64,000 bases of DNA. Origin: a virus. Under the pieces are notes generated by a model. It did no database searches. It saw only the letters and a program-made list of their open reading frames with translations, and had not been told where the DNA came from. A program made the translations under genes and the position numbers. The stretch covers positions 1 through 64,000 of IMG/VR virus record IMGVR_UViG_3300036832_001138; one strand, 5' to 3'. Each line of letters starts with the position of its first letter. Positions within the stretch are counted from its first letter, which is position 1. Of this stretch, positions 777 through 56,159 are shown one piece after another.

Positions 777-1711
777 CGTTGCGAACAACGGCGAAAGAAA
801 CCGGGCGGCGCGTGCAAACCTCGCAGGCGCGTTGCACGCTGCGCGATTTCGATGACGATCACGACATGATGGAAATCAAGGCGGCCGATGTGATGACATC
901 GGAAACGCCGACCAATTTCGAGCGCTGGCAATCGGTCGGAATGTCGGTCCACCCGATGCCGCAGGAGCAGGATCAGCAACAACAAGGCCAACAGGATCAG
1001 CAACAGCAAGATGGCGGCGGTGGCGGCGGCAACGGCGATCAAAACCCGTGGAACATGAAGCAGCCCAAGGGCCCGTCGGCCGAAGGGTTGATGATGTACC
1101 CCGGCGGCTCGCGCTCGCATCCGGTATGTGCCGGGATCGATGATCGGCGCGTGCGGCCGTATCAGACCAAGCCGGGCGAAGCGCTTTACTACTCGGCCGA
1201 TGGGTCCGGGCAGACAATGTATCACCGCGTTCGCGGCGACGGGAATGATGGGCTCTTTCTCCTGACGTGCGACGATCAGCAACAGAGCGGGCATGGCGTG
1301 CGCGGACGTGCGGGATCGGGCCAAGGTCCGCAGAAGCGCTACGTTTCCATTCGCCACGTGAACAAGAAAAAGCAGCAACGCAAATCAAAAAAGCTGCAAC
1401 AACAACAGCAACAGCAATACGACATGGAGCTATTTGCTGATCAGCAGCAGGAGTACAAGCACGAAGGCGATTCGGTGAACACCGAGACGCGGCACTACGC
1501 GGATCAGATCGGCTATTACGACGGTTCGACTCAGGTCGGCAATTACAAAAAGAGCGACAAAGAATGGTGCCACCACACTGGAGATCGTAGTCAGTCAACG
1601 CGCGCCGATCAGAATCACTCGCATATTAAATTCGCAGGCTCGCACTGTTGGATGGAGGGCGGCTGCTTTCATTCGGTGCCGTGGGTCTTGAAGCCCGATC
1701 CTTGCACGTGA
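773..1711 (+). CDS. Mu gp45-like baseplate spike/assembly protein with poly-Gln/Gly insertions
   Basis: ATGA overlap with the previous stop. 'ETPTNFERWQSVGMSVHP...AEGLMMYPGGSRSHPVCAGIDDRRVRP...PGEALYY' matches the gp45 pattern. Confidence 0.7.
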   Translation: MTLRTTAKETGRRVQTSQARCTLRDFDDDHDMMEIKAADVMTSETPTNFERWQSVGMSVHPMPQEQDQQQQGQQDQQQQDGGGGGGNGDQNPWNMKQPKGPSAEGLMMYPGGSRSHPVCAGIDDRRVRPYQTKPGEALYYSADGSGQTMYHRVRGDGNDGLFLLTCDDQQQSGHGVRGRAGSGQGPQKRYVSIRHVNKKKQQRKSKKLQQQQQQQYDMELFADQQQEYKHEGDSVNTETRHYADQIGYYDGSTQVGNYKKSDKEWCHHTGDRSQSTRADQNHSHIKFAGSHCWMEGGCFHSVPWVLKPDPCT

Positions 1712-1712
1712 C

Positions 1713-2783
1713 ATGGGCCAGTGGTGGATTGCGCCGGGACACAATAACGGCACCGTCTGCATCGACGATGCCTTGCTTTACAACATTGATTGCTCGTCGG
1801 TCCCGGCCAACATCGATCTGATCTTTTGGTACGGCCAGAACGGCGAGATTCTTTATCAGGTTGGTGACCGGCCGCGCATCCGCGAGCCGTTCATCGATAT
1901 CACGCCGTATATCGCGATCTTCGACAAGTGGATGGTCGCGGCGGAAACGACCACACCGCCGCTCACATTGCCGCAATCGAAGTTCGTCAAAACGCAGGAA
2001 GTCGACGCACTGTTTGCTTCGAAGCGGCAGCTTCCGATGTCGTATCTCGGCTATCTTTGGGACGGCAGCGACGAAGCGACCGGCGCGATGTCGGATCAGA
2101 TCGCGGCCATCACCGCGCCGCCCGATCCCTCCGGCGCGATCAATTCGGCAACCGCCGCGCTGGCGACCAGCGTCAATCAGTCATTCGCTGCGCTGATTGG
2201 TAGCGTGAATTCTGCGCACTCGACGATCGAGAGCACGTCAGACGCGGCCAATGCCGCGCTCGCTGGTGGGTCCGGTGCTGGCTATGTCGTTGATGAGGTG
2301 AACTCGATCAACGATTCGTTTGCTGGCGATAATGCGACGGCCGTCAATAATATGCTGGCCGAATTACAGAGCGGCATCACCTACGCGATCTCGCAGCATG
2401 CGGTGCTGATCAACGGATTGCTGGCGGGCGGTGTTCCGCCGGGCACCGCGCTCGATGGCACGCAACCGACGTTTGCCGGAGCGAGCTTCACAGACGCGAC
2501 CAAGCCGTCGATCGTGAGCGTGCCGAGTGTTTCCGCGCCAGACGTTTCGGTACCGCCGGTTTCCGCCACGCCCGTGCCGCCGGTAGATGCGCCGAATATC
2601 TTGTGGCCTCCGATCGGCGCGCCTCCGGTGCCGCTCACCTACACGCAATTTACCACGTTGCTCGGGATGCTGACGCAACGCCGCAACGCGCTGCAAATCC
2701 AACGCACGAACCACAAGAACAACATCATAATTCTGACGACGATCGCGGCCGTCGTTGCTTACGACATTACGACGGGATGGTGA
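1713..2783 (+). CDS. Tail-associated protein, DUF4376/tail-fibre-assembly-like with a large Ala/Ser-rich insertion
   Basis: C-terminal 'VPLTYTQFTTLL...AAVVAYDITTGW' is typical of DUF4376-like proteins; tail-operon context. Confidence 0.5.
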   Translation: MGQWWIAPGHNNGTVCIDDALLYNIDCSSVPANIDLIFWYGQNGEILYQVGDRPRIREPFIDITPYIAIFDKWMVAAETTTPPLTLPQSKFVKTQEVDALFASKRQLPMSYLGYLWDGSDEATGAMSDQIAAITAPPDPSGAINSATAALATSVNQSFAALIGSVNSAHSTIESTSDAANAALAGGSGAGYVVDEVNSINDSFAGDNATAVNNMLAELQSGITYAISQHAVLINGLLAGGVPPGTALDGTQPTFAGASFTDATKPSIVSVPSVSAPDVSVPPVSATPVPPVDAPNILWPPIGAPPVPLTYTQFTTLLGMLTQRRNALQIQRTNHKNNIIILTTIAAVVAYDITTGW

Positions 2784-2786
2784 GGT

Positions 2787-2813
2787 GGCGGCGGTGCTTG
2801 TGACACCGCCGCC
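2787..2813. terminator. GC-rich hairpin downstream (on the - strand) of the TIGR mini-array
   Basis: ggcggcggtg-cttgtga-caccgccgcc, a 10-bp stem; no clear U-tract. Confidence 0.4.
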
Positions 2814-2819
2814 GGAGAT

Positions 2820-2914
2820 GCGCCCGGCAGTCACCGTTTGGAGTTCACATCATTCCTGGCCGGGCGCGGCGGTCGCACGAACGCGATGGAGTTCAGAAGA
2901 ATAATGGCGACCGC
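2820..2914 (-). ncRNA. Orphan TIGR-like mini-array (2 guide units)
   Basis: gcgcccgg-ca-gtcaccgtt-tggagttca-catcattcc-tgg-ccgggcgc-g-gcggtcg-ca-cgaacgcga-tggagttca-gaagaataa-tgg-cgaccgc; same architecture as the 53.7-56.1 kb arrays. Confidence 0.9.
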
Positions 2915-2942
2915 AACGAGAGTGTAACCGAAAAAAGGGCCA

Positions 2943-4103
2943 ATGGCGAGAACACCCACACGAGTACCCGCATTTCCGACAACGCCGCCGGGCGCGGGCG
3001 TGCCGACGCGCGTACCGGGGCCGTCGCTTCCTCCCGTGGGTACGCGCTCGCCCACGCGCGTGCCCGCTGCGCCGCAGACCGCGCCGGGCAACGGCTTTCC
3101 CAATGCGGTGCGTATTCCGCAAACGTCGCCGGTCGGCCCGACCTACCCGGTGCACAGCCCGCCCGCGCCTACCGTCGGCTCGCGCTTCCCGGCGAATTCT
3201 CCGCCTCTGCCCATCGTGCCCGCGCGCTATCCCAACAGCGCGCGGCTGACGGCGGAGGCGGTGATCAGGGGGGCGAGCTTTCCCAATCGAAGCAGTCCGG
3301 GCATGGCGTTGCCGACGCCAACCGGGCAATTCCCCGATCACCCGACGGCGCAACTCCCGGCCCCGCCCGCGCAATTCCCCGACCGATTCGATCCGGGTAT
3401 GACGCTGCCGACGCCAGTCTCGCACTTCCGTCACTACAACAAGCCGGGTGAGCCGGGCTCGGGCGGGTTTGATCCCGCACCTGCGCCAAATCGGCGCTTC
3501 CCGACGCGGCATATCGATCCGCTCACGCGCATCCCGCGGTGGCGGCAACGGCTGCGTATCGCCTCATTCAAGGGGATTGAATTCTACGTCGAGCAACAAG
3601 GGCGCACGTCCGGCACGCGTACCGTCTTGCATCAATATCCGAAGCGCTCTGTGCCCTATGCCGAATCCATGGGACGCGAGGCGTTGCACTACGCGGTCAC
3701 CGGCTATCTGATCCAATCGCCGAACTGGCCGACGGGCGCGTCGTATTACGAGATGCTCTCGGATTATTCCGATCAGCGCGACAGCCTCGAAGCGGCGTTG
3801 ATGGACCCGGTGCCGGGCGAATTGCGTGATCCGCACACGCCGTATCTCGGCGTTGGTTACGCGCCGCTTCTGTTCATGTGTGAGAAGTACACGATCGTCG
3901 AGCAACGCGAGAAGGGCGGTTTTTGCTCGATCGAAATGAGCTTCGTCGAGGCTGGCGTCGCTGGCATGTCGATCCAAATGCAAGACACCGCTGGCGTCGT
4001 CGCCAACGCCGCGAACAACGCGAGCACTGCCGTAGCCGCGCAGGCTAATGCGCAACTCGGTGCCGTCAATCAACCCGGCGCTGCGCTCGCGTTTGAAGAA
4101 TAG
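2943..4103 (+). CDS. DNA circulation protein (Mu gpN-like) N-terminal domain with a Pro-rich extension
   Basis: 'WRQRLRIASFKGIEFYVEQQGRTSGTRTVLHQYPKRSVPYAESMGR' resembles DNA_circ_N; 'CSIEMSFVEAG' follows. Confidence 0.8.
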   Translation: MARTPTRVPAFPTTPPGAGVPTRVPGPSLPPVGTRSPTRVPAAPQTAPGNGFPNAVRIPQTSPVGPTYPVHSPPAPTVGSRFPANSPPLPIVPARYPNSARLTAEAVIRGASFPNRSSPGMALPTPTGQFPDHPTAQLPAPPAQFPDRFDPGMTLPTPVSHFRHYNKPGEPGSGGFDPAPAPNRRFPTRHIDPLTRIPRWRQRLRIASFKGIEFYVEQQGRTSGTRTVLHQYPKRSVPYAESMGREALHYAVTGYLIQSPNWPTGASYYEMLSDYSDQRDSLEAALMDPVPGELRDPHTPYLGVGYAPLLFMCEKYTIVEQREKGGFCSIEMSFVEAGVAGMSIQMQDTAGVVANAANNASTAVAAQANAQLGAVNQPGAALAFEE

Positions 4104-4158
4104 TTCTTCGTCGTTTCCCCGTTCCACATCGCCGTCAACGTGAAGGGAGGGCATATCA

Positions 4159-4539
4159 ATGCCTGGAAAATGCAATAGCTATGTTCTCGACAACGGCTTG
4201 GTCGCGTTGAAGGCGGCTGCAACGCACATCTATATTTGCAGTCAGGAGCCCGTGGATTACACGACGGCAACGACCACCTACGCGCTTGGCAACAAAAACT
4301 TCGGCGCGGGCGCGGTGCTCACCGGCCCGGTCGATCGCACGCCGAATGGTCGCAAGGTCACGACCAACGCCGTTACCGATGGCAACGTGACCGGCAGCGG
4401 CAATGCCGCACGATGGGCGATTGTCGATGCTGCGAACTCGCGGCTCTTGGTCGACAACGATCTCGCCGCATCGCAGCCCGTGACCGCCGGAAACGTATTC
4501 AGCTTGCCCGGATTTGATTTCGGCATCCCTGGTTCGTAA
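4159..4539 (+). CDS. Putative virion structural protein
   Basis: SD gggagg; 126-aa beta-rich protein in the tail operon. Confidence 0.55.
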   Translation: MPGKCNSYVLDNGLVALKAAATHIYICSQEPVDYTTATTTYALGNKNFGAGAVLTGPVDRTPNGRKVTTNAVTDGNVTGSGNAARWAIVDAANSRLLVDNDLAASQPVTAGNVFSLPGFDFGIPGS

Positions 4540-4561
4540 ACGCGACTAAGGGAGCGCGGCG

Positions 4562-5431
4562 ATGGTCGCCAAGCTCATCAGGCACAAGTTTCAATCGGCC
4601 GTCGCTGACGGTACCGATGCGACGCTCGTGCGACCGTCTGTCTGGAACGGTGATGCGCATGATTTCAAGCTCGGCGGGCGCACCGTCGTGGTGTTGACGG
4701 ATACGATTGTCAACGCCGACGAATGGAGCCTGATCAAATACAATCGTCCTGGTCAAAATATAGCCGTTTCGCTCGCCGCGCCTGACGCTAACAATTTTCA
4801 GGCGGGATGGACGACATTCCTGCGCAACATCAACTCAGGCATCGCCACCATCACGACTCCGGCCTTGATCCAATTTGGCATGGGATCAATCAGTTCGCTC
4901 AATCTTCGTCAGGGAGAAGATTTGATCCTGACATCGGATGGCACGAATTACGACGTGCTGTGGTCATCGGGCTCGCTATTTGCGCGGGCGGGACAAATAC
5001 CGGGGACGGCGACAAACGACAACGCGGCGGCGGGCAATGTCGGCGAGTTTCTGTTCTCCGTTGTCCCAAGCGGTTCAGGGCCGGGTCTTGTTAGCAGCAC
5101 TGCGGTGGCCGTCGCTGGTGTCAATCTCACGCCGGGGGATTGGGACGTGCAGGCCATGATTGGGTTTGTTGGCGGCGCTGCGACGCAGGTGGCCTATGCG
5201 ATTGGTTCGCTATCAACGGCGCAGGGTGGGATAACGGGCGGCTATGGTTCGGTGTGGCAGGCGTATTACAACGCCGGGCCATTCAGTTCTATCGGCAGCA
5301 TCATGCTGCCGATATCGTCAGTACGATATACCCCCACTAGCACGACAACCGTTTGGTTGAACGCGCAGGTGGGCTTTACTCCTGGCTCAGTCAGCGCCTT
5401 CGGCACCATCCGCGCGCGCAGGGTGCGCTGA
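4562..5431 (+). CDS. Putative tail fibre/receptor-binding paralog 1
   Basis: First of three TGATG-coupled paralogs sharing 'HKFQxAxADGxDATLVRP' and 'GQIPGTxxNDNAAxGNVG', ending in 'RRxR'. Confidence 0.6.
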   Translation: MVAKLIRHKFQSAVADGTDATLVRPSVWNGDAHDFKLGGRTVVVLTDTIVNADEWSLIKYNRPGQNIAVSLAAPDANNFQAGWTTFLRNINSGIATITTPALIQFGMGSISSLNLRQGEDLILTSDGTNYDVLWSSGSLFARAGQIPGTATNDNAAAGNVGEFLFSVVPSGSGPGLVSSTAVAVAGVNLTPGDWDVQAMIGFVGGAATQVAYAIGSLSTAQGGITGGYGSVWQAYYNAGPFSSIGSIMLPISSVRYTPTSTTTVWLNAQVGFTPGSVSAFGTIRARRVR

Positions 5432-6288
5432 TGGCAAAACTGTTCAAACATAAGTTTCAGTTGGCCGTCGCGGACGGTGCTGATGCGACACTTGTGCGTC
5501 CATCGACCTGGAACGGCGATGCACATGACTTCAAGCTTGGCGGGCGCACGGTAACGGCGGCGACGGACACGATTGTCACCACCGACGAATGGAGCCTGAT
5601 CAAATACAATCGCGCTACACCCATATCAGTCAGCATGGGGCCGATAGATGCCAACAATTTTCAGGCAGGTTGGGTGACGTTTGTACGCAATCTCGGTGCG
5701 GGAGTTCTGCAAATCAGCGGTACAGGCGGCGTCAACAATGGTTTTGGAAACGCCTCCCCCCTAAGACTTGAGCAAGGTGAAGATGCGATTATCACTTCGG
5801 ATGGCGCGAATTTTGATGCGCTTTGTTCGTCTGGCTCGCTGTGGACGCGCGCGGGCCAGATACCGGGGACGCTAACCAACGACAACGCGGCGGCAGGGAA
5901 TGTCGGCGAGTTTTTGATAGCGACGAGCGGCAGTGGTGCGCTGGTAACCGATACTCCGTTTGCGCTGATAAGTATCACGCTAACAGCAGGAGATTGGGAC
6001 ATTGAGGGGACCGCGACATTTTCCGGCAGTGGGGCAACCCCGGTGAACTATTTGATAACCGCAGTTAACACCGTAGCAAACCAAGTGCATCAGGGACTCG
6101 GTTCGCATTGGCAGACGTTTTGGGGCCAGACGCCATTCAACGTTGTAGGCAACGTGGTTTTGCCGATCAGCAAATGGCGGCTCAGTATTGCGTCTGGCAC
6201 GCAGCCCGTTTATGTGAACGTACAGGCGGGCTTTACTCCGGGCGCAATCAATGCCGTAGGCACTATCCGCGCGCGCAGGGCACGCTGA
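5431..6288 (+). CDS. Putative tail fibre/receptor-binding paralog 2
   Basis: Start MAKLFKHKF overlaps the previous stop; same conserved blocks as paralog 1. Confidence 0.6.
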   Translation: MAKLFKHKFQLAVADGADATLVRPSTWNGDAHDFKLGGRTVTAATDTIVTTDEWSLIKYNRATPISVSMGPIDANNFQAGWVTFVRNLGAGVLQISGTGGVNNGFGNASPLRLEQGEDAIITSDGANFDALCSSGSLWTRAGQIPGTLTNDNAAAGNVGEFLIATSGSGALVTDTPFALISITLTAGDWDIEGTATFSGSGATPVNYLITAVNTVANQVHQGLGSHWQTFWGQTPFNVVGNVVLPISKWRLSIASGTQPVYVNVQAGFTPGAINAVGTIRARRAR

Positions 6289-7169
6289 TGGTAGCAAAGA
6301 TTTTCAAGCACAAGTTTCAGTCAGCGATTGCGGATGGCGCTGATGCGACGCTCGTGCGGCCGCAGGCGAATTGGAATCTCGACGATCATGATTGGCGATT
6401 TGGCAGCCGCACGGTCACGGCGGCGACCGATGCTATCGTCAATGCCGATGAAATGAGCCTGATCAAATACAACAGGTCATCGGCAATCGCTGTTTCCATC
6501 GCGTCGCCGGATGCCAATAACTTTGTACCCGGATGGCTCACGTTCGTGCGCAACATCGGTGTGGGCTTGGTCACGATCACGGCCGCTGGCACAGCAGTGT
6601 TTAATCGTGGATTGGATTCATCAAGCTTTCTCTACCTTCGTCAAGGCGAGGATGCATTCATCATATCTGACGGCACGAATTACGATGCAATCGTTCGGTC
6701 CGGCTCGCTGTTCAATCGACGCGGCCAGATTCCAGGGACGACAGGAAACGACAACGCGGCGACGGGGAATGTCGGCAACACTCTTAGCGCTTCCAACGGG
6801 CCGTTCGGACTCACGTCAAATGTAATTACCAGCACTAATGCATTCTCTTTAGGCCCCGGCGATTGGGATTGTGATGCAACGATGTCATTCAGCACGGTAT
6901 CGGGCAATGAGCCAAACACCTACGTCGATTATATTACTGGTTTTTTCAATCTCGATACTTATGGCCAAGGATATGGACAGCAGCAATTTGCGGTGCCCTT
7001 GTTTCACAGCCAGCCTTTTCTCTTTATTAACAGCCTTGGGTTCGTGCTACCGACCGCACGAGTTTTGGTGCCAGTTGGCGCGACTTCCGGCGTGTTTATG
7101 GCCGCGCAGGCTGGCTTTGCTGGCCCCTTACAATTCACTTGGTACGCGTCATATCGGCGGGTTCGCTGA
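6288..7169 (+). CDS. Putative tail fibre/receptor-binding paralog 3
   Basis: Start MVAKIFKHKF overlaps the previous stop; same blocks, with a more divergent C-terminal domain. Confidence 0.6.
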   Translation: MVAKIFKHKFQSAIADGADATLVRPQANWNLDDHDWRFGSRTVTAATDAIVNADEMSLIKYNRSSAIAVSIASPDANNFVPGWLTFVRNIGVGLVTITAAGTAVFNRGLDSSSFLYLRQGEDAFIISDGTNYDAIVRSGSLFNRRGQIPGTTGNDNAATGNVGNTLSASNGPFGLTSNVITSTNAFSLGPGDWDCDATMSFSTVSGNEPNTYVDYITGFFNLDTYGQGYGQQQFAVPLFHSQPFLFINSLGFVLPTARVLVPVGATSGVFMAAQAGFAGPLQFTWYASYRRVR

Positions 7170-8674
7170 TGTCCGGCCCGACTGCATTCCAACCTAATGC
7201 CTTTCAGGCGAATGCGTTTCAGACCGCCGTCCCGCTGACGGTTAATGCCTATTCGCTCGGCGCGCTGCAAATCGGCATCCCATCGCTGACGGTCAAGCGC
7301 GTTCTGTCCGCCAACGCCTACTCGCTCGGCTCGCCCGCCTTCGCCGCGCCGCCGCTCAAAGCGGTTGTTATCTTCACGGCCCCCGTGGCGTACTCGCTCG
7401 GTTCGCCGAGCTTCGCCAAACCGGCTCTATTTAGCTGGACGCGGATCGTCGCGGGCGATTACTCGCTCGGCTCGCCGAGCTTTGCGACGCCGCCGCTCAC
7501 GCGCATTGTCGTCTTCGGCAAGCCCGCGGCGTATTCGCTCGGCTCGCCCGCATTTGCCACACCGGCTCTGAAAATTATCGGCTTCGCATTTCATGCGAAC
7601 CCGTATTCGCTCGGCTCGCCGTCATTCGCATCGCCGTTTGTCCGCTTCACGCAAAAGTTCACGGCGCGATCGCTCACGCTCGGATCGCCGACATTTGCCA
7701 CGCCGCAACTGACGCAAACGCATCGGTTCTTTACCAACACGATGGCGCTCGGCTCGCCGAGCTTCGACCGACCAAGCGTCAGGATGAACTATCGCCTTGT
7801 ACCGGCGGCGTTCGATGTCGGCAGTCTCGACATTGCGTCGACCCCGCCCGTGCTTGAGATCACCACGCTATTCAAAGCGAATGCCTATTCGCTCGGTAGC
7901 CCGAGCTTCGGCTTCCCGCGGTTGCAAACGCAAGCCGTCACGCCGCCATGGCCGCCGAGCTATTTGACTCAAGTTGAGTCAGCGACCGATCTGCTCGTTG
8001 GCTTCGTCAACGCGGTGTTGCGCAGCATACCCGACACCTCGACTGACGTTGCGCAAACCGCGTTGCAGCTTGGGGCACAACTTCGTGCCAATGCGACCAA
8101 CATCATTCGCGGCAATACGCTTGGCACGCTACTCAATAACTTCCTGCTCGCGGCTGATGCTGCGGGCGCAACCTATGGCGGTATCGAGGAAGCGCGCAAA
8201 TATCTGATGAGCTTTAGCGGAAGCCCGCAAGTGTTTACGCAAATCGTCATGCGCTCGGCGCTCGTGATGACGCTTGGCCTCGAAAGCAAAATCATTTCGC
8301 GCATGACATTCTCGACGCAAGCGCAAGCGCAAACAATGGTCATGGCCGTGCAGACGATGTTTGATGACGCCAAGGCGATCGGGATCGATACCATCGATGC
8401 GCTGGTTTATGAAAACCTGATTGCGTTGGCCGGTGCAATCATGAACCACCTCGCGACGACGGCATTGCAGCTTCCGCGCTACGTGGAATATCGCAGCGGC
8501 CTACCGATGCCGAGCCTTTATCTCGCCAATCGCGTCTACGGCGACGCCAGCCGGTTCGAAGAAATCGAGCGCGAGAACGGCGTGATTAATCCCGCATTCT
8601 GTCCGCGCACATTGCGCGTCTTGTCGGATGCGGAAATCGTTCCGCTACCGGGAGGGCCCTACCGGGCAAGCTGA
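7169..8674 (+). CDS. YSLGSP-repeat protein fused to a Mu gpN-like C-terminal region
   Basis: About 10 repeats of ~25 aa (xYSLGSPxFAxPxL). C-terminal 'LPMPSLYLANRVYGDASRFEEIERENGVINPAFCP' resembles the end of DNA circulation proteins. Confidence 0.6.
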   Translation: MSGPTAFQPNAFQANAFQTAVPLTVNAYSLGALQIGIPSLTVKRVLSANAYSLGSPAFAAPPLKAVVIFTAPVAYSLGSPSFAKPALFSWTRIVAGDYSLGSPSFATPPLTRIVVFGKPAAYSLGSPAFATPALKIIGFAFHANPYSLGSPSFASPFVRFTQKFTARSLTLGSPTFATPQLTQTHRFFTNTMALGSPSFDRPSVRMNYRLVPAAFDVGSLDIASTPPVLEITTLFKANAYSLGSPSFGFPRLQTQAVTPPWPPSYLTQVESATDLLVGFVNAVLRSIPDTSTDVAQTALQLGAQLRANATNIIRGNTLGTLLNNFLLAADAAGATYGGIEEARKYLMSFSGSPQVFTQIVMRSALVMTLGLESKIISRMTFSTQAQAQTMVMAVQTMFDDAKAIGIDTIDALVYENLIALAGAIMNHLATTALQLPRYVEYRSGLPMPSLYLANRVYGDASRFEEIERENGVINPAFCPRTLRVLSDAEIVPLPGGPYRAS

Positions 8675-9205: not shown

Positions 9206-10309
9206 ATGCCGTGGGTCACGCCAACGTTGCAGCAATGCCGCGAGATCGTGCGCGACGATATCACCGCGTCTTTGCAGGGCGCGGCCGTGGTCGGCAACAC
9301 GGTGCTGCGCGTTATGTCCGATGCGATGGCGGGGATCGGCGCGCTCGTGCTGCGATACGAGGATTGGCAGGCGCGGCAATTGATGGTCGACCAAGCCGAG
9401 AAGGAATGGCTCGATCGGCACGGGAACATATGGCTCGTGAACGCCGACGGCACGACCGGCCGCAAGGGCGCGACCACGGCATCCGGTACGGTAACCTTCA
9501 CGGGCGTTGCAGGCGTGACCGTTGCCGCGGGCACCGAGCTTGTGTCACCTGACGGGCAGGCGTTTTACGATACGCTGGAATTCATCACGCTCGGCACGGC
9601 ACCGGTCGAGGTTGCCGTTCGCGCGACGACCGCCGGGGCGGCGGGCAACATACCCGCGGGCACCGCGCTGGCGCTGACCGTTCCGGAATCCGGCGTCGAT
9701 AGTGCGGTCATCGTCGTCGATCTGCGCGGCGGTGAGGAAGTCGAGAGCGATGACGAACTCCGCGCGCGCGTGCTCGCGCGTATCCGCCAGCCACCGATGG
9801 GCGGCTGCGCTTACGATTACGAGCATTGGGCGATGAGCATTCCGAGCGTGACGCGTGCATGGTGCGCGCCGCGCGAGATGGGAATGGGCACCGTGACGGT
9901 GCGATTCATGTGCGACGCGTTGCGGCCGGAAACCAGCGGCATCCCGACGCAAGACGATATCAATATCGTGCGCAACTATCTCGACACGGTGCGCCCGGTC
10001 GCGGTGCGAGATTTCTTCGTTGAAGCGCCCGTGCCCGAGCCGATCAATTTCAATCTCGCGCTCAAACAGGATTCTCTCGCGCTGCGCGGGCAAGTGCAAG
10101 CGTCAGTCGCGGCGATGATCAGCGAGAAGGCCGCGCCCGCGCACCAAGTCGACGGCGAGCTTGTGGCGGGCACGACGATTCTCGCATCGTGGGTTGCGGA
10201 GGCGATCAACCGCTGCACGAATGATTTCACGCTCGATATGCAAGATCATCCCATGCCGCACAACGGGGCAATCGGGGTACTCGGTGCGATCAGCTATCCG
10301 ATTCCGTAG
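9206..10309 (+). CDS. Baseplate J / Mu gp47-like protein
   Basis: 'WLDRHG...RKGATTASG', 'GGEEVESDDELRARVLARIRQPPMGGCAYDYEHWA', 'GMGTVTV'. Confidence 0.9.
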   Translation: MPWVTPTLQQCREIVRDDITASLQGAAVVGNTVLRVMSDAMAGIGALVLRYEDWQARQLMVDQAEKEWLDRHGNIWLVNADGTTGRKGATTASGTVTFTGVAGVTVAAGTELVSPDGQAFYDTLEFITLGTAPVEVAVRATTAGAAGNIPAGTALALTVPESGVDSAVIVVDLRGGEEVESDDELRARVLARIRQPPMGGCAYDYEHWAMSIPSVTRAWCAPREMGMGTVTVRFMCDALRPETSGIPTQDDINIVRNYLDTVRPVAVRDFFVEAPVPEPINFNLALKQDSLALRGQVQASVAAMISEKAAPAHQVDGELVAGTTILASWVAEAINRCTNDFTLDMQDHPMPHNGAIGVLGAISYPIP

Positions 10310-10319
10310 AGAGAAGGGC

Positions 10320-10369
10320 GAGCCCCGGCAGTCACGCTCTGGAGTTCATGAATTCGATGGCCGGGGCTC
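10320..10369 (-). ncRNA. Orphan TIGR-like guide unit
   Basis: gagccccgg-ca-gtcacgctc-tggagttca-tgaattcga-tgg-ccggggctc, intergenic between baseplate J and the gp48-like gene. Confidence 0.88.
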
Positions 10370-14075: not shown

Positions 14076-14708
14076 ATGGTCGGAAGACTCGCCTACATCG
14101 TGTTTCTGGATTCCGGTGGTCCGGTCGATCCGGGCTTCGGCGTTCCCGGTTGGCCCGCGCATCCTATCGCACCGGGCGGGCCGCCTCCCGGCATCTGGCC
14201 CGGTCCCGGCTACCCGGCACATCCGATCGCGCCCGGTGGTTCTCCGCCCGGCATTTGGGGCGGTGCGCCAGCATGGCCCGCGCACCCGATCGCGCCCGGT
14301 GGTCGGCCTCCGGGTTTTTGGGGCGGGTCACCCGCATGGCCGAGCCATCCCATCGCGCCCGGTGGTTCGCCTCCGGGTATTTGGGGCGGCGTTCCGCCGA
14401 ACTACATCGACATCGGGTTACCGGGCCAGCCGCCCGGCATTTGGGGCGGTGGCAATCAACCGTTCCCGACGCCGCCGATCTACATTCCGATCCCGCCCGG
14501 CGAGCAGCCGCCCGAAGGCGGCAATGGGCTCTTGCCTAGTCATCCGATTGTGATTCCACCGTCGGAAGGCGTTCCCGAAGATAGCCAAAAATACTTGGTT
14601 CACGTTTACGTCGCGGGGGTTGGTGGAGTGTGGTTCTTGATCCAACCGCCGCCCATGCCGACGCATCCGTGGGTGCCGCCCGCTCCACCGGCAGGGCCGA
14701 AGGCGTAA
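14076..14708 (+). CDS. Pro/Gly-rich repeat protein (PAHPIAPGGxPPGIWGG repeats)
   Basis: SD gaaggagtc at 14061; four to five ~19-aa tandem repeats. Confidence 0.7.
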   Translation: MVGRLAYIVFLDSGGPVDPGFGVPGWPAHPIAPGGPPPGIWPGPGYPAHPIAPGGSPPGIWGGAPAWPAHPIAPGGRPPGFWGGSPAWPSHPIAPGGSPPGIWGGVPPNYIDIGLPGQPPGIWGGGNQPFPTPPIYIPIPPGEQPPEGGNGLLPSHPIVIPPSEGVPEDSQKYLVHVYVAGVGGVWFLIQPPPMPTHPWVPPAPPAGPKA

Positions 14709-14863: not shown

Positions 14864-14915
14864 GTGATCCGGGCATCAGGTTATTGGAGTTCATAGGTCG
14901 CGTGGCCGGGATCAC
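14864..14915 (-). ncRNA. Orphan TIGR-like guide unit
   Basis: gtgatccggg-ca-tcaggttat-tggagttca-taggtcgcg-tgg-ccgggatcac; new stem sequence but the same boxes and 9-nt spacers. Confidence 0.85.
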
Positions 14916-23483: not shown

Positions 23484-23777
23484 TTAACGCTGCCGATTCT
23501 TCATTTCGTCGCGCGTCAACTGCGATACGCCCTTACTCCGCCGTTCCTTTTCCGTCAGCTTGGGATAGCACTCGACACAGATGCGCTTGGGCACCCTTGG
23601 GGCGTGCCAGCGATACATGATCGGGCACCCGCATCGGCAGCACACGCCCTTGAAATTGTCGTCGAACGGCGATGGCCCATCCGGCAGGCAAACAAGATAT
23701 TCCGCCGTTTCTGCTTTCGCGTCGGATACGACCTTAACCGGCGTGTTGCCGACGTTGACTGTCTCGCGTTTTTTCAC
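23484..23777 (-). CDS. Small Cys-rich (Zn-binding) protein; paralog of 63234-63512
   Basis: 'VVSDAKAETAEYLVCLPDGPSPFDDN...CxxC...RWHAPR.PK.ICxxC'. Confidence 0.6.
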   Translation of the reverse strand: MKKRETVNVGNTPVKVVSDAKAETAEYLVCLPDGPSPFDDNFKGVCCRCGCPIMYRWHAPRVPKRICVECYPKLTEKERRSKGVSQLTRDEMKNRQR

Positions 23778-40882: not shown

Positions 40883-41461
40883 TCATTCAGTCTGCCATCC
40901 GCTCGGTCGTGTTGGATCGTCATGGGGGCGTGGCGGCTCGTGCCGTCCTTTATCCTTAGCAAGAGCGAGAAGTTCGCTCACATCTTGCACACGCATCACC
41001 TTCTCAATTATCTTGTTAAGGTCGACGCGCAGCGAGCGTATTTCATGCTCAATTTGGTCGAGTCGGGAAGGGGCCTCGCGCGTTCGCTCCCCGCTATCCA
41101 CACGTCTTTCCAGCGCTAAAATTCGCCGAGCGAGCACAGCGGGATGCAATTCCATCGCTTCGAGCACGCGCATGCGCTCGCGCATGTTCTCTATCGACCC
41201 TTCGGCCCGGTTCAAGGCGTCGAGCGCAGCCGATATCTGCAACGCCAAATGCTCGGCTCGCGGGACGATGCTCTTGTGGACGAAATTTTCCAAGCGGCGA
41301 TGCTGCTCGTCGAGCACTTCGGCCGCGGCGCGGTCGCCCCATCGCTGCCAATTCGGCAGATCAACCGGGACAAGCCGCGTACCCTGCGCTCGCAAGGTGC
41401 GTGGCGGCGTGAAGCCGGTAATCTTGCGCTTGATCTTCCGTTTTCGCTTTTTCATTTGCAT
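40883..41461 (-). CDS. Basic N-terminus coiled-coil protein (near-target of two guides)
   Basis: SD aggagtc; 192 aa. Confidence 0.6.
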   Translation of the reverse strand: MQMKKRKRKIKRKITGFTPPRTLRAQGTRLVPVDLPNWQRWGDRAAAEVLDEQHRRLENFVHKSIVPRAEHLALQISAALDALNRAEGSIENMRERMRVLEAMELHPAVLARRILALERRVDSGERTREAPSRLDQIEHEIRSLRVDLNKIIEKVMRVQDVSELLALAKDKGRHEPPRPHDDPTRPSGWQTE

Positions 41462-50703: not shown

Positions 50704-52848
50704 GTGATGCTGGAGATCGAGCCCATAGCTCGCGCATTGCTCGGCGAGCCCAACGCGAAGCTATCTTCGCAATTCGAATGGCGATATGGCAACCGCGGCT
50801 CGCTTTCAATCGATCTGCGCAAGAATGTTTGGCACGACCACGAAACCGACGAGAGCGGCGGATGCCTCGATCTGATCACTCACAAGACCGGACTCGACGG
50901 CCCGGAGCGTGCGCAATGGATGCACGATCGCGGCATCGGCAATGGATACGATCAAACGACCAAGCGCCCGGAGATCGTGGCGACGTTTCCCTATAATGAC
51001 GAATACGGCAAGGAGCTTTTTCAGGTTGTCAAATTCGAGCCGAAGGATTTCCGCCAGCGGCGGCAAGACAAGACCGCGCCCGGCGGCTATCGCTGGTCGG
51101 TCAAGGGCGTGCGGCGAATTCCCTATCGCCTCGACGATTTGTCAGAAAAAATCGAAGGGCGCATTTTCATCGCCGAAGGCGAAAAAGACGTTGATACGCT
51201 TTGGCGGCACAACATTCCAGCGACGTGCAATGCCGGGGGCGCAGGCAAGTGGCATCCCGAACTCACCGAATTTTTCCGCAACAAGACCGACAACGTAGTT
51301 GTACTGCCCGATCGTGATCCGCCGAAGAAAGACCCAAAGACCGGCGCGGAAATGAAGCACGAGGATGGGCGGTTCATTCGGCCGGGGCAAGACCACGCAC
51401 AAGAGATCGCGGCAGAGATGCATCGCATTGGCGTACCCGTGCGCGTGGTCGAGCTTTGGCGCGATTGGCCGGAGATGCCCGAGAAGGGTGACGTAACCGA
51501 TTGGTTCGATCATGGCGGCACGGCCGACCGGCTACAGAAAATTGTTCAAGACGCCCCATTTTGGAAACCGGGCGATCAAGCTGACGACGGCGCGCTGCTC
51601 AAGCTCCAATCCGTGTTTCCGATCAACGAGCGCGCACTCCCAACGCGCAATTGGATCATGCCAGGACTTTTAATGCGGCGTCAGGTAACCGTGTTGGTAG
51701 CACCAAGTGGTGTGGGCAAAAGTTTGCTCACGCTGCAATTAGGTATCGCCTGTGCACAAGGCCGAAAATGGAGCGGTTGGACTCCGCGCCGTACATTCAA
51801 CGTGCTGTTTATCAACTCGGAAGATGACTATTTCGAAATCTGCCGCAGGCTCGCCGCGGCCACGCAAAGGATGCGACTCGGCGCACATAACGAATTCGAA
51901 ATTGATCAGCTAGGAATCGCCGATCGCTTCCATATCGCCGATGCCGAGCAGAGCGGTACTGTTGTTGCCAAGTTTGACGCACGAACCAAAACGCTCGTGA
52001 GCACACCGTTGCACGATCAACTGATCGAAACAATAAAAGCCAACCAAATCGATGTGGTCTTCGTCGATCCGTTTGCCGAGACTTTCGAGGGCGACGAAAA
52101 TTCCAATAGCGAATTGAAGTGGGCGGGCGCGTTATGGCGCAAGGTTGCGCGGCAAACCGATGCTGCGGTTTGTCTCGTGCATCATACAAAAAAATATGCA
52201 AGCGGGCTGCAAGGTGACGTTGATGCGGCGCGCGGTGCTGGTGCGCTGATCGGAATCGCGCGCATTGTCTCGACGCTATTTCCGATGACGCCGAAGGAAG
52301 CGGAAGCGATGGGCGTCAAGCTCGGAGATAGGTCGCTCTATTTGCGATACGATGATGCGAAAGCAAATCTGAATTTGGTTTCTCCGTTTGCGCGCTGGTT
52401 TCAAAAGACCACGATCACGCTCGACAATGCATGCGGCGATCCTAACAGCGACGACTTTGTGCCCGGCGACGAAGTGGGCGTGCTCAATCCATGGAAGCCT
52501 GAAACGAAAGACGTGCACGAAGCTCAGATCATCGGATTTTTCAAGGCGATCGATCGCGGCATGGTCGACGATGCTGATCAACCGACCGGCGAATTCTGGA
52601 CCTTCAAAAAGGGCAAGAGCGGCGCGAGATACGTCGGCTACCTCGCGCAAAGCTTTTTCAAATGCGATGCGCTCTCGCAAGCCGAAGCGCTGATCCGCAA
52701 GTGGGAAGGCACAAGATTGAAAACGATTCAATTCAAGGCGCGGAACGGTCACCTTCGTGATCGCGTCGTGAGCGAGCTTTCCCCCGACTTCCCGCGCCCC
52801 GAGGCCGCGCCGATCGAGCCGATGGCACAGCTTTTTCCTGCCGAATAG
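50704..52848 (+). CDS. Primase-helicase (TOPRIM + AAA_25/RepA-like helicase)
   Basis: TOPRIM 'IFIAEGEKD...LPDRD', 'KGDVTDW'; Walker A APSGVGKS; 'VFVDP', 'LVHHTKK', 'ARGAGAL'. Confidence 0.9.
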   Translation: MMLEIEPIARALLGEPNAKLSSQFEWRYGNRGSLSIDLRKNVWHDHETDESGGCLDLITHKTGLDGPERAQWMHDRGIGNGYDQTTKRPEIVATFPYNDEYGKELFQVVKFEPKDFRQRRQDKTAPGGYRWSVKGVRRIPYRLDDLSEKIEGRIFIAEGEKDVDTLWRHNIPATCNAGGAGKWHPELTEFFRNKTDNVVVLPDRDPPKKDPKTGAEMKHEDGRFIRPGQDHAQEIAAEMHRIGVPVRVVELWRDWPEMPEKGDVTDWFDHGGTADRLQKIVQDAPFWKPGDQADDGALLKLQSVFPINERALPTRNWIMPGLLMRRQVTVLVAPSGVGKSLLTLQLGIACAQGRKWSGWTPRRTFNVLFINSEDDYFEICRRLAAATQRMRLGAHNEFEIDQLGIADRFHIADAEQSGTVVAKFDARTKTLVSTPLHDQLIETIKANQIDVVFVDPFAETFEGDENSNSELKWAGALWRKVARQTDAAVCLVHHTKKYASGLQGDVDAARGAGALIGIARIVSTLFPMTPKEAEAMGVKLGDRSLYLRYDDAKANLNLVSPFARWFQKTTITLDNACGDPNSDDFVPGDEVGVLNPWKPETKDVHEAQIIGFFKAIDRGMVDDADQPTGEFWTFKKGKSGARYVGYLAQSFFKCDALSQAEALIRKWEGTRLKTIQFKARNGHLRDRVVSELSPDFPRPEAAPIEPMAQLFPAE

Positions 52849-53647
52849 GTTCGTCAACGGCGACGCGACGCCATTCGCTCAGCAAATCTTTGAGAAATTG
52901 TTTCATCGTGATGCGCAGCGCATCTTTGCGCCGATGGCCGTCGGTCCAATCCGGGTGCGCTTTCTTGGTGTAGGCGCGGCGCTTAGCATAGATTTCGCCA
53001 TAGTGGCCCTTTGGCTTGCCTTCGCCGCCGGTTTTCTTTGCGCCAATCCACTGCGCGTTCACGAGCCACGTCGCGATCTGTGCCATCAGCGCATAGCGCT
53101 CCCCGGAAAAAGGATTTTCGATCCATTCGTCGGCGCTCAGCGCGCGCGGTCGCCACGTCGTGCGTTTCCACGTTGATCCGGCGTGGCCGTCGTATGGTGC
53201 GAAGCCGAGCCGCTTCCATAACTTGCTCGGCTTGGAATAATTCGAGAGATCGCCAGCTTCGGCGACGATGGTCGCGAGCCCGAGCGCGCCTGCGCCGTGA
53301 ATCTTTTCGATCCATGGATAAACCGGTAGCTCGCACGCGGCAGCCTCCATTCGCTTTTCCGTGGCAGCACGCCGTTCATCAGCGGGCGCACGCGCAGGAT
53401 CGCATACCTGCAACACTTCTTCCGCCAGCGGATGCGCTTCGCCCTCGCGAATGCGCTTGATAATTTCGCGCACCTCGCGGTTCGATTTCTCGCGCTCGGC
53501 ATCGCTGGCGTTAGGATTCCATTTGGTGCCATTGATACGAATGAAGCTTTCGAGCGAGCGGTCAAGTTTCTGTTGCACTTTCATTGCGAACCGTCGCTTT
53601 CGATGCAGGCCGCGGATCAATTCGATGGTTTCGGATTGTTGGGTCAT
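52733..53647 (-). CDS. TIGR-associated Nop-domain protein without a nuclease domain (TasA-like)
   Basis: 'IHGAGALGLATIVAEAGDLSNYSKPSKLWKRLGFAP' and 'GHYGEIY..RR...HRRKDALRITMKQFLKDL' resemble the IS110/Nop RNA-binding region; starts at the coiled coil with no DEDD-RuvC or HNH; directly downstream of the array. Confidence 0.8.
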   Translation of the reverse strand: MTQQSETIELIRGLHRKRRFAMKVQQKLDRSLESFIRINGTKWNPNASDAEREKSNREVREIIKRIREGEAHPLAEEVLQVCDPARAPADERRAATEKRMEAAACELPVYPWIEKIHGAGALGLATIVAEAGDLSNYSKPSKLWKRLGFAPYDGHAGSTWKRTTWRPRALSADEWIENPFSGERYALMAQIATWLVNAQWIGAKKTGGEGKPKGHYGEIYAKRRAYTKKAHPDWTDGHRRKDALRITMKQFLKDLLSEWRRVAVDEPIRQEKAVPSARSARPRGAGSRGKARSRRDHEGDRSAP

Positions 53648-53676: not shown

Positions 53677-54214
53677 GCGAGCCCGGCAACCGGTCAATGG
53701 AGTTCACGATCGCCTTGGCCGGGCTCGCGGCGGTCGCAAGCGGCGTGTGGAGTTCACAGACGTGATGGCGACCGCATTGGTGGATTAGGGTGCGAGCCCG
53801 GCACTCGCGATATGGAGTTCAAGTGCTGGTAGGCCGGGCTCGCGGCGGTCGCAACGCAACGTTGGAGTTCACATGATCTTTGGCGACCGCATTCGAGAAT
53901 AGAGCGCCCGGCATGCCGTTTGTGGAGTTCAATCACGTGCTGGCCGGGCGCGGCGGTCGCACGGAGGCGCTGGAGTTCACGATCTACATGGCGACCGCAT
54001 CGGTGGATTGGGTGCGAGCCCGGCATTGGCCGACAGGAGTTCAACCCTTTCCTGGCCGGGCTCGCTACGGTCGCATTGCGCGCGTGGAGTTCACTCAGAT
54101 CGTGGCGACCGCAAAAGGTGCGCCCGGCAGCGTTGTCATGGAGCACACAAGTGTTTTGGCCGGGCGCGGCGGTCGCAACCGCTCCGTGGAGTTCACTACT
54201 GTTTTGGCGACCGC
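53677..54214 (-). ncRNA. TIGR-like stem-loop guide array, proximal (10 units)
   Basis: Minus strand unit: stem-CCA-N9-TGAACTCCA-N9-TG-stem'; stems alternate between GCGGTCG and GCG(A)GCCCGG; all spacer pairs differ. Confidence 0.9.
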
Positions 54215-54226
54215 ATTTCGTGAATA

Positions 54227-54898
54227 TCATGACCGTGCATCGCCCTCGATTTCTGACGGCTTGCGCGCGGCGGCGATCAGATCGCTTGCGACCTTCGCCG
54301 AGCCGTCGCGGATCACTTCGACGGCTTTGATCCTAGCGTCGTTATAGTATTGCACGGCAATCTTGAGCGGTATCACCTTCTCGACTTCGCCGTGCGGATC
54401 GGCGGCGACGCAATAGTCATTCAACCGCCGGATTGCGATCGCGTCGACTGCATCATCATAACCGCGCTGTAGGAAATCTCCGGCCGTGTTTGCCAGATTT
54501 TCCGCGATGGCGCGCAATTCGTGTACGCGCAGCTTCCCAAGCGGACCATAACCACGGATTTTGCGGTTGAATATCTCGGCGGCGACGGCTTGCCCGGCGG
54601 CGATCGCTCCCGCCTTTTGCGCGTCGGTGGGTGTGCGGAGCAGACTGCTCCGGCGATGCTTGCCCTCGCGGCGGCGCGCGGCGGGCTTCGGGTGCGCGAT
54701 CCGCGGTAGCTTCGTTTCGCTCGACGGCGACGACAAGCGCGACAGGTAATCAGCAACGAGCGCGATAAGCAGCGGCCGCTTCGCATTGTCCATCAACGCG
54801 CGTGCCAGCGTCGGTGCGGCTTTGTTCACACTATTGTTGCTGGCGCGCAGCGCTTCGATCGCGGCGTCGCGGAGCTTATCGAGATCAGAGGCGGCCAT
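54227..54898 (-). CDS. Hypothetical helical protein embedded between the two arrays
   Basis: 223-aa ORF with SD gaagga; it fills the gap between the arrays exactly. Confidence 0.7.
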   Translation of the reverse strand: MAASDLDKLRDAAIEALRASNNSVNKAAPTLARALMDNAKRPLLIALVADYLSRLSSPSSETKLPRIAHPKPAARRREGKHRRSSLLRTPTDAQKAGAIAAGQAVAAEIFNRKIRGYGPLGKLRVHELRAIAENLANTAGDFLQRGYDDAVDAIAIRRLNDYCVAADPHGEVEKVIPLKIAVQYYNDARIKAVEVIRDGSAKVASDLIAAARKPSEIEGDARS

Positions 54899-54929: not shown

Positions 54930-56121
54930 GCGAGCCCGGCAAGTGGTGACTGGAGTCCACGTCGGATCAGGCCGGGCTCGCGGCGGTCGCAGAATTGTTT
55001 TGGAGTTCACCAAGGCACTGGCGACCGCATTCGAGATAAGAGCGCCCGGCAGGCTACATTTGGAGTTCATAGGGCCAATGGCCGGGCGCGGCGGTCGCAG
55101 CGCAAGATTGGAGTTCACGTGATCTTTGGCGACCGCATTCGAGGGAAAGAGTGCGCCCGGCAGAGCTTCACAGGAGTTCACGCCGAATTTGGCCGGGCGC
55201 GGCGGTCGCATCTCGTCGTTGGAGTTCAATCGTGTGCTGGCGACCGCATTTCGAATAGGTGCGCCCGGCAGAAGCCGGTTGGAGTTCAGGCCAGCATTGG
55301 CCGGGCGCGGCGGTCGCACGACACCAATGGAGTGCAAGGGAGAACAGGCGACCGCATTCGAGATGGGTGCGCCCGGCAGGTCATCGTTGGAGTTCACGTG
55401 CTTGATGGCCGGGCGCGGCGGTCGCAATCTCTGGATGGAGTTCATACAAATGCTGGCGACCGCATTCGGGTGAAAGAGAGCGCCCGGCATTTCCATTTTG
55501 GAGTTCAACTGATCGCTGGCCGGGCGCGGCGGTCGCATTCCAAACCTGGAGTTCATCAGCTTACTGGCGACCGCAGTCGGTTTGATAGGTGCGCCCGGCA
55601 AGGCGATGTTGGAGTTCATATTGCCGGTGGCCGGGCGCGGCGGTCGCAGATAGGTGCAGGAGTTCACACCCGAATTGGCGACCGCGTTGGTGATAGGTGC
55701 GCCCGGCAATGATTGCTTGGAGTTCATCATGAAGGTGGCCGGGCGCGGCGGTCGCAGCGTGGCGTTGGAGTTCACGGGATCAGTGGCGACCGCGTTCGTT
55801 GTGATAGGTGCGCCCGGCAGACAGCGATCGGAGTGCACGTTCACCAGGGCCGGGCGCGGCGGTCGCAGTGGCAGTATGGAGTTCATTCGGCACCTGGCGA
55901 CCGCATTCGAGAATAGAGCGCCCGGCACGCCTCCCTTGGAGATCAATGCCGAAATGGCCGGGCGCGGCGGTCGCATCCTCGATCTGGAGTGCATCAGTGG
56001 CATGGCGACCGCGTTCGTGAAAAGGTGCGCCCGGCAGACGAGTTCTGGAGTTCACGACTACGATGGCCGGGCGCGGCGGTCGCACCTTGAACTTGGAGTT
56101 CAACCACGTCGTGGCGACCGC
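54930..56121 (-). ncRNA. TIGR-like stem-loop guide array, distal (22 units)
   Basis: Eleven two-hairpin modules (~105-115 bp period); same CCA/TG boxes, 9-nt spacers and 9-nt loop repeat. Confidence 0.92.
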
Positions 56122-56129
56122 ATGCCAAA

Positions 56130-56159
56130 CATATACGGGCCATCGGCCTAACGTGTCAA
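56130..56159 (-). promoter_or_regulatory. Sigma70 promoter driving the array-tas operon, with operator variant
   Basis: TTGACA-N18-TATATG; the predicted start site falls at the first stem; the spacer holds AGGCCGATGGCCC. Confidence 0.8.

Follow-up and report, generated by a model that had tools for sequence, protein, structure and literature searches.

Stem-loop TIGR-TasA systems are, in the available text of the reports that describe them (PMC12045711; 10.64898/2026.09.09.750476; 10.64898/2026.08.11.744272), phage-borne loci in which a Nop-domain Tas protein without a nuclease is encoded together with arrays that flank accessory genes. In each array unit, palindromic stems and a 9-nt loop accompany two spacers of 9 nt, which are bounded by box C (CCA) and box D (UG); each spacer pairs with a different DNA strand. 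Faure et al. described stem-loop arrays with palindromic flanks and noted that the loop and edge elements both start with box D (UG) and end with box C (CCA) (PMC12045711). TasA and catalytically dead TasR repress transcription through RNA-guided binding, according to the accessible part of one report (10.64898/2026.09.09.750476). The natural targets and role of TIGR-Tas are treated as open in the portions of the literature available to us, because the spacers are short and most loci lie on metagenomic fragments (PMC12045711; 10.64898/2026.09.09.750476), and competition between mobile genetic elements was raised as speculation in the Discussion of Faure et al. (PMC12045711). Here we analyzed a stretch of 64,000 nucleotides (the window), which comprises bases 1-64000 of IMG/VR virus record IMGVR_UViG_3300036832_001138, a complete phage genome of 73,077 bp with a G+C content of 59%. 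The carrier is a temperate-looking soil phage, and the element under study is a two-unit stem-loop TIGR mini-array at 2818-2916 on the minus strand. The interpretation we favor, at a probability of about 0.55, is that this orphan guide is aimed at the allele of related phages, that the carrier's own mismatched allele is spared, and that the linkage between guide and allele is kept through recombination.

The locus differs in several respects from the described systems. In the available text the published stem-loop units lie next to or inside tas (PMC12045711; 10.64898/2026.09.09.750476; 10.64898/2026.08.11.744272), whereas here single or paired units are found up to 50 kb from tas, inside the tail operon, and a conserved accessory open reading frame (ORF) of 223 amino acids is present. 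The dual-repeat TasR systems show no covariation and have abutting 18-bp sites (PMC12045711); in contrast, the last spacer bases covary here and the predicted site is 17 bp. Furthermore, candidate natural targets were identified in the present study, while the accessible portions of the papers call natural targets mostly undetermined (PMC12045711; 10.64898/2026.09.09.750476).

The mini-array contains one unit of each stem type, and its loops and boxes are perfect. Read on the minus strand, every unit in this genome runs from a 5' stem ending in CCA through spacer A (9 nt), TGAACTCCA and spacer B (9 nt) to TG and the 3' stem. On the plus strand the two units occupy 2820-2867 and 2868-2915, and in each of them TGGAGTTCA separates two variable segments of 9 nt, with a palindromic stem in front of the first segment and the closing stem behind the second. 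Based on the box C/D order of the units, the guides correspond to the minus strand, which is also the strand of tasA, the gene directly downstream of array 1. In an alignment of 34 units, the box D TG was invariant in the loop and at the edge, as was the CC in each of the two CCA boxes, the final A was present in at least 90%, and the stems were 8-10 bp; these are the features that define the stem-loop TIGR motif (PMC12045711). A covariance model was built on the 34 units, both mini-array units included, so that the scores of these two are partly by construction. This model gave 36 minus-strand matches in the window, 32 inside the main arrays and 4 elsewhere, and never exceeded 19.7 bits on the plus strand.

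Unit 2, which would be transcribed first, is located at 2866-2916 (minus strand), scored 38.1 bits on the minus strand only, and is predicted to fold with an 8-bp stem. Its minus-strand sequence gives TTATTCTTC as spacer A and TCGCGTTCG as spacer B; in plus coordinates spacer A occupies 2896-2904, the loop 2887-2895 and spacer B 2878-2886. Unit 1, at 2818-2868 (minus strand), is of the second stem type and scored 53.2 bits, with spacer A at 2848-2856 and spacer B at 2830-2838. The mini-array is intergenic, with ORF 1713-2783 on one side and the DNA_circ_N gene (2943-4103) on the other, and lies 50 kb from the main arrays (53.7-56.1 kb) and tasA. Both the architecture and the strand-specific covariance scores bear out the orphan TIGR mini-array of the initial annotation, which runs antisense to the tail operon. 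The downstream hairpin noted in the same annotation was also recovered: folding of the minus strand from 2925 to 2780 gave both expected stem-loops and a GC-rich hairpin with an 11-bp stem (z = -4.28). The hairpin, at 2785-2814, separates the mini-array from the stop codon of ORF 1713-2783, and carries no U-tract on either strand. A search of Rfam gave only a sub-threshold microRNA match, and PADLOC returned nothing.

A candidate promoter, TCGCCA-N17-TACACT, is located at 2921-2949 (minus strand), and its -10-like hexamer ends 4-5 nt ahead of the first stem. The start codon of the DNA-circulation gene (ATG at 2943) falls within this putative promoter, as does a GCCATTGGCC palindrome. Its placement resembles that of TTGACA-N18-TATATG ahead of the main array. 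In the main-array promoter (56130-56159), GGCCGATGGCC lies between the hexamers; the similar GCCATTGGCC lies at 2938-2948, and GGGCCGATGACC is found upstream of a mini-array in the related phage G001. These three sequences may represent a shared operator.

In order to interpret the spacers, the geometry of the target has to be defined. A unit pattern scan identified the related IMG/VR phage G001 (65 kb, 21 units) and 87 soil-metagenome stretches, and left 270 units on 84 contigs after a stem filter, 226 of them distinct. A pattern scan of genome contigs gave 14 single matches; 3 of them, with inner stems of 5-7 bp, passed the stem filter, and the others were attributed to chance. The ninth bases of spacers A and B were Watson-Crick complementary in 125 of the 226 distinct units (Z = 9.6), or in 162 of 226 when G-U pairs are counted, and among the 81 A/B position pairings examined the ninth/ninth pairing was the sole covarying cell. 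The covariation persisted when the source genome was left aside (107 of 191 units, p = 1e-17). This covariation suggests that the two spacers read, or pair across, one shared central position, that is, a one-base overlap. Thus a target rule of a 17-bp site, read as 8+1+8 with the center read by both spacers, is supported at the level of sequence. The predicted 17-mer accordingly begins with spacer B and continues with the reverse complement of spacer A, the two overlapping by one base, in the orientation that gives 3' overhangs of the TasR type (derived from the text of PMC12045711).

Matches in other contigs point to the same geometry. Within 564 kb of contigs, perfect 8+N+8 matches were found for 4 units, compared with 0.28 expected from mispaired spacers, and matches with at most one mismatch for 18 units, compared with 6.07 expected. 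The excess was confined to the orientation of spacer B followed by the reverse complement of spacer A, and it is on these matches that the predicted tandem-spacer reading of both strands is based. Additionally, sites on a unit's own contig with at most one mismatch in 16 numbered 3 in the one-base-overlap geometry and 1 in eleven other geometries together; the other gaps and orientations were run as controls and rejected as the true geometry. The overlapped 17-bp geometry assumed in the initial annotation is therefore backed by both covariation and perfect matches in other contigs.

Under this rule, unit 2 has a near-cognate 17-bp site at 4087-4103 (plus strand), within the adjacent gene. This gene (2943-4103, plus strand, 386 amino acids) encodes a Mu N-like DNA-circulation tail protein (Pfam DNA_circ_N, E = 2.2e-16), and the site comprises its last five codons and stop codon, 56 nt upstream of the next gene. 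The site matches the unit 2 17-mer at 15 of 17 positions. The two differences between self and guide, TTT/TTC (Phe) and TAG/TAA (stop), are both synonymous and fall at third codon positions of ORF 2943-4103. The mismatch at T4094 corresponds to spacer B position 8 (C-A), the mismatch at G4103 to spacer A position 1 (a U-G wobble), and the central G4095 fits the ninth bases of both spacers. No other site in the 73,077 bp, on either strand, has three or fewer mismatches over the 16 non-central positions, and the next best has 4. Genome-wide, matches of this quality are not rare (about 4.4 per 36 units per geometry are expected by chance anywhere in 73 kb), and the significance of the near-site derives from its proximity together with the independently supported geometry. 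Among 20,000 letter-shuffled guides, 0.1% reached two or fewer mismatches within 1300 nt in the same geometry (p = 0.001). Thus the near-target reported earlier, with a 15/17 match and silent differences only, is present as described and is not random.

Nearby near-sites are not restricted to unit 2. Within 1.3 kb of a unit on its own contig, 21 distinct sites with at most 2 mismatches in 16 had spacer B ahead of the reverse-complemented spacer A, and a single such site had the opposite orientation; 9 of the 21 have the one-base overlap. Beyond 1.3 kb the corresponding counts were 34 and 37, as chance predicts. Three such nearby pairs occur in the source genome, those of unit 2, an orphan unit at 10331 and an array unit at 56085. 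The second orphan unit (10319-10369, minus strand) was found by the covariance model between the baseplate J and Mu gp48-like genes. Its near-site, at 9576-9592 in baseplate J, is 739 nt away and shows one non-central mismatch, which is synonymous (CTG/CTC); the center of the site fits spacer A only, and the shuffle p is 5e-5. The promoter-proximal array unit 56085 has its near-site at 56701-56717 in the adjacent ORF (p = 0.0016).

Guide/self mismatches were typed over the longest open frame covering each of the 9 nearby pairs with overlap geometry. Synonymous third-position changes accounted for 12 of the 15 non-central mismatches, where chance would place about one third at third positions (binomial estimate of approximately 3e-4); the exceptions were one mismatch in the G001 pair at 47642 and two in contig L110. 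This pattern suggests that the guides resemble other functional alleles of the adjoining genes. Two of the 9 pairs concern genes of G001's own TIGR system, namely the FAMKVQ codons of tas and the accessory ORF. At the three informative G/C-versus-A/T differences in the source genome, the self allele is the minor codon (TTT 36%, AAA 36%, CCA 9%), which gives a weak hint from codon usage that the self alleles could be the derived state.

Two further guides lie close in sequence to sites of their own contig. Array unit 55100 matches 41421-41437 at 16 of 17 positions, in codons 7-12 of ORF 40883-41455 (minus strand, 190 amino acids, with a Lys/Arg-rich N-terminus), and the one base that differs changes the amino acid (AAG/ACG). 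The match could reflect self-regulation or, alternatively, be a trace of the allele carried by a relative. A match of the same guide in contig L176 with 1 mismatch was rejected as chance, as it falls in a bacterial-type ORF in a different frame. In contig L159, a two-unit mini-array at 203-278 lies directly upstream of a recombinase-like ORF, and its first unit matches 392-408, 72 nt into the ORF (codons 25-30), at 16/16 positions with a center that differs synonymously (ATT/ATC).

The question of whose alleles the guides match was answered most directly at a sister locus. In contigs L138, L164, L171, L193 and L144, two units lie upstream of an HTH_17 gene (Pfam E = 2e-7, L118 homologue). Contig L118 is homologous on both sides of this locus and has only the first unit. 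The L164 version of the extra-unit guide matches the first codons of the L118 HTH_17 gene at 17/17 positions. The carriers' own gene lies 22 nt from the guide; its sequence is identical across the center and the half read by spacer B, and differs at 5 of 8 positions of the spacer A half (TPTQ vs TPAD). This demonstrates that the sister-locus guide matches a relative that lacks the guide, and not its own neighbor. A nearby match at gap +3 in the L138 family proved by alignment to be a shifted partial match and was set aside.

Guide matches were also found between other contigs and phages. The soil-phage contigs carry a family-wide excess of perfect and one-mismatch guide matches, including one in the source phage at 23602-23618, and unit 2 is not among them. 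This site (minus strand) is matched perfectly (8+center+8) by a guide of contig L135 (unit at 558), and falls in the MYRWHA codons of a small Cys-rich conserved ORF (23484-23777) that has a paralogue at 63234-63512. Furthermore, the tas-directed guide of G001 differs from the tas beside it by 2 synonymous mismatches and from the tas of four other contigs by 1 mismatch.

Relatives of the unit 2 locus itself were sought in several collections. A blastn search of 1700-4600 against 50,697 annotated phage records gave no match, and protein-seeded locus searches gave no locus in GTDB genomes and only two in IMG/VR, both distant (56-62% identity). Among the protein homologues P0162 is the closest, at 78% identity; it is encoded on a 101-kb contig outside IMG/VR, shares the N-terminus and ends in AFEE. 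A search seeded with P0162 gave 10 pattern matches and no relative. Five soil sequencing runs were listed for the stretch, all without an RNA designation. In contigs of soil runs X1-X4, relatives about 85-94% identical cover 3957-4121 and 4089-4419. A joint from 2725 to 2942 in X4, one side of which is 23 letters and below the reliability guide, may represent a relative without the mini-array.

The protein expected to use these guides is encoded next to the main arrays. The octamer GGAGTTCA occurs 31 times on the plus strand, compared with 1.1 expected, with the majority of copies inside two arrays at 53.7-54.2 kb and 54.9-56.1 kb, in which the two stem types alternate. Array 1 (53677-54216, minus strand) has 10 units and lies directly upstream of tasA, and array 2 (54930-56123, minus strand) has 22 units. 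Upstream of array 2, TTGACA-N18-TATATG is found at about 56130-56159, which the promoter scan does not call, and the terminator of the ORF upstream of array 2 lies at 56203-56182 (minus strand). The gene tasA (52733-53647, minus strand) encodes a Nop-domain Tas protein of 304 amino acids, assigned by phmmer, a fold model and Foldseek. The phmmer match was to the solved TasR structure 9mty (E = 0.015), with a sub-threshold Pfam Transposase_20 match (20.8 bits, cut-off 21.3), a PHROG match to 'transposase' and 391 metagenomic homologues of about 280 amino acids. The AlphaFold model (35 sequences, predicted local distance difference test score (pLDDT) of 85) is all-helical, with a coiled coil at 3-104 followed by a C-terminal domain. 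Foldseek returned TasR 9mty (E = 4e-5) and TasH 9vzx (E = 9e-5), then the IS110-family recombinases IS621 and ISCro4. The helical model without a nuclease, together with the TasR and TasH fold matches, identifies the product, as judged from the model, as TasA, a Tas protein without a nuclease domain.

The accessory ORF (54227-54898, minus strand) lies between the two arrays and encodes a conserved, all-helical product of 223 amino acids. It has tblastn matches in G001 and more than 20 TIGR contigs, as well as 40 homologues. Its model (pLDDT 77) gave no PDB match at E <= 0.001, and the sequence matched no Pfam or PADLOC family. We consider it a candidate accessory protein of the TasA family that carries it. 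A G001 array guide matches the G001 accessory ORF with 2 synonymous mismatches.

Together these observations lead to the following model. The mini-array would be transcribed from the minus strand to give two stem-loop tigRNAs, which would be loaded in trans by the phage's own TasA, encoded 50 kb away. Each tigRNA would read 17 bp, with 8 bp of pairing between spacer B and one strand, 8 bp between spacer A and the opposite strand, and a central base pair that is read twice, by the ninth base of each spacer. The predicted target of unit 2 is the synonymous TTC...TAA variant of the end of the DNA-circulation gene, of which the carrier's own copy reads TTT...TAG. Binding of TasA-tigRNA to the sensitive allele on a co-infecting or superinfecting genome would then block transcription or replication, and the carrier's own mismatched allele would be bound less well or not at all. 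Since the guide adjoins the spared allele, guide and 'antidote' would stay together through recombination. Because no nuclease was found and TasA repression has been published, binding rather than cleavage of the homing type is the most likely action.

Several results weigh against the interpretation that the guide is aimed at relatives. The exact predicted 17-mer had a single match in IMG/VR, in the unrelated, AT-rich contig L100, whose record contains no DNA-circulation gene; this match was judged chance. A scan with a degenerate pattern of the C-terminal codons gave 0 matches, and the 87 metagenome loci retrieved include no homologue of 2943-4103. P0162 ends in PAFEE where the protein here ends in LAFEE, which would place a mismatch at the outer edge of spacer B. 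The perfect alleles predicted for two other guides gave 2 matches (tas-directed guide of G001) and 25 matches (guide of L159) in IMG/VR, all of them in unrelated frames or proteins and thus uninformative. Trans-target examples are few, and many of the contigs are related to one another. Unit 1 and the orphans at 14876, 67403 and 67451 have no near-site in the genome; for unit 1 the best match has 4 mismatches in 16, and half-site searches for unit 1 and the other orphans gave nothing convincing. No RuvC, HNH or other nuclease family was found for TasA in Pfam, PHROGs or PADLOC, and no nuclease was recognized in the accessory ORF. The candidate mini-array promoter has the letters and palindrome overlap that were claimed for it, but it is weak: it matches only 8 of 12 consensus positions, and the promoter scan does not call it. 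Finally, the own site may still be bound despite mismatches at spacer positions 1 and 8, by analogy with proteins in which edge mismatches are tolerated: TasR tolerates mismatches near spacer edges (PMC12045711), and TasH, in the available text, tolerates mismatches at positions 2 and 8, with position 1 reported in another study cited there (10.64898/2026.08.11.744272). The earlier proposal that the guide recognizes a relative's allele while self differs thus holds at the sister locus, where the L118 allele matches the L164 guide at 17/17 in a contig without that guide; for unit 2, the searches did not return the predicted allele in the right context.

An alternative explanation is self-regulation, in which TasA-tigRNA binds the phage's own 4087-4103 in spite of the mismatched edges and, as a roadblock, adjusts how much read-through from the DNA-circulation gene reaches the tail genes downstream, with the mismatches setting a weak affinity. 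The position of the near-site 56 nt upstream of the next gene would suit such a role, as would the location of several of the sites at gene 5' ends (unit 55100, codons 7-12; L159, 72 nt into the ORF). TasA proteins are repressors in the accessible part of the literature (10.64898/2026.09.09.750476), and mismatches at positions 1 (U-G wobble) and 8 are tolerated in other Tas proteins according to the available text (PMC12045711; 10.64898/2026.08.11.744272). However, spacers are free of coding constraint and should match a regulatory site perfectly, whereas a match over the full 17 positions is absent from the 9 nearby pairs. The 12 of 15 synonymous differences are the signature of a homologous allele and not of a tuned operator, the own allele of the L138 family has 5 mismatches in one half where the relative has none, and a self near-site exists for only 4 of the 38 guides of the source phage. 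We regard self-regulation as less likely than targeting of relatives, but still as a credible competitor.

It is also conceivable that the guide is a neutral shadow or relic, which once matched the gene or arrived by recombination from a relative, with synonymous drift since; the orphans would then be decaying leftovers and the linkage without selective meaning. Synonymous-only divergence is the expectation of drift under protein constraint, the mini-array promoter is weak, and 4 of 6 orphan units have no near-site. In contrast, loop and box C/D motifs are perfect in all four orphans of the window, their stems of 8-10 bp are intact, and one of them has its own minus-strand terminator. The enrichment of near-sites close to the guide in one orientation only argues against random relics, and the minor codons of the self alleles at the three informative differences weakly suggest derived self alleles. 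On balance this explanation appears quite improbable. That the 15/17 match is an after-the-fact coincidence in a GC-rich genome is very improbable, since the roughly 4.4 such matches per 36 units expected in 73 kb for any one geometry, and the choice of geometry and neighborhood in the initial annotation after looking, are set against the neighborhood shuffle, a geometry fixed independently by covariation in 191 units of other contigs, the synonymous nature of both mismatches and two further nearby pairs in the source genome.

The closest conceptual precedent for a guide aimed at relatives is the virus-borne mini-CRISPR array directed at related viruses (PMC6858448). In the accessible text of that report, one or two guides on a virus genome are aimed at close relatives, and heterotypic superinfection exclusion is proposed. 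Here the guides are of the TIGR type, the effector comes from the same phage and not from the host, no cleavage is predicted, and the guide adjoins the carrier's own mismatched allele. The initial annotation likened the locus to free-standing homing endonucleases. As described in the available portions of the reports on the T-even endonucleases SegB (PMC2330249) and mobE (PMC2790892), a small selfish cassette sits between conserved genes and is directed at a conserved gene close by in related phages, the carrier itself has a different sequence there, and the predicted outcome is preferred inheritance of the cassette and flanking markers. The layout here, with a cassette beside a conserved gene of which the carrier has a different allele, agrees with this comparison. 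The mode of action does not: recognition would be by RNA, TasA lacks a nuclease domain, and no double-strand break would start gene conversion.

We tentatively hypothesize that the orphan units and mismatched neighbor alleles might constitute RNA-guided poison-antidote cassettes. TasA would silence co-resident genomes that carry the sensitive allele, so that only recombinants with the resistant allele and the linked guide would yield progeny, and the cassettes would spread like free-standing homing endonucleases, though with no DNA cleavage; the main arrays would represent a larger stock of the same weapon. If true, this would be the first natural biological role of TIGR-Tas together with the first target rule, and the rule would affect guide design for tools from TasA proteins of the source-phage family. 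TIGR-Tas, stem-loop arrays and TasA repression are already published. In the TIGR-Tas literature searched, with main texts as the scope, we did not find orphan units at a distance from tas, covariation between ninth bases together with an overlapped 17-bp site, related phages as natural targets, or guides beside synonymous near-copies of their targets. A complete 73-kb phage and 84 related contigs here support, from covariation, a predicted target rule of 8+1+8 bp with the center read by both spacers, and statistically supported natural targets in conserved genes of related phages, including tas and the accessory gene. The layout of guides beside synonymous near-copies points to exclusion between phages with linked immunity.

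All orphan units are intergenic. The third orphan unit (14864-14914, minus strand) lies upstream of an amidase gene and has a slightly imperfect stem; a minus-strand intrinsic terminator at 14862-14836 follows directly after it. Just upstream of this unit, four tandem repeats of 60-63 nt at 14154-14402 (plus strand) encode a Pro/Gly-rich segment (HPIAPGG.PPGIWGG) within ORF 14116-14553. A further two-unit mini-array at 67391-67489 lies outside the window, and the sequence upstream of it is similar to the corresponding flank of the mini-array at 47.6 kb in G001.

Downstream of the DNA-circulation gene, three tandem paralogous tail-fibre-like genes are located at 4562-5431, ~5430-6288 and ~6290-7169 (plus strand), the first of which matches a PHROG tail fibre family. 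Their N-termini are near-identical (MVAKL.. KHKFQSA..ADG.DATLVRP) and their C-termini have diverged. These genes are followed by an ORF of 511 amino acids at 7139-8674 (plus strand), the first half of which consists of repeats of 23-24 amino acids (AYSLGSPSFA.P motif), visible as 69-72-nt direct repeats in the DNA.

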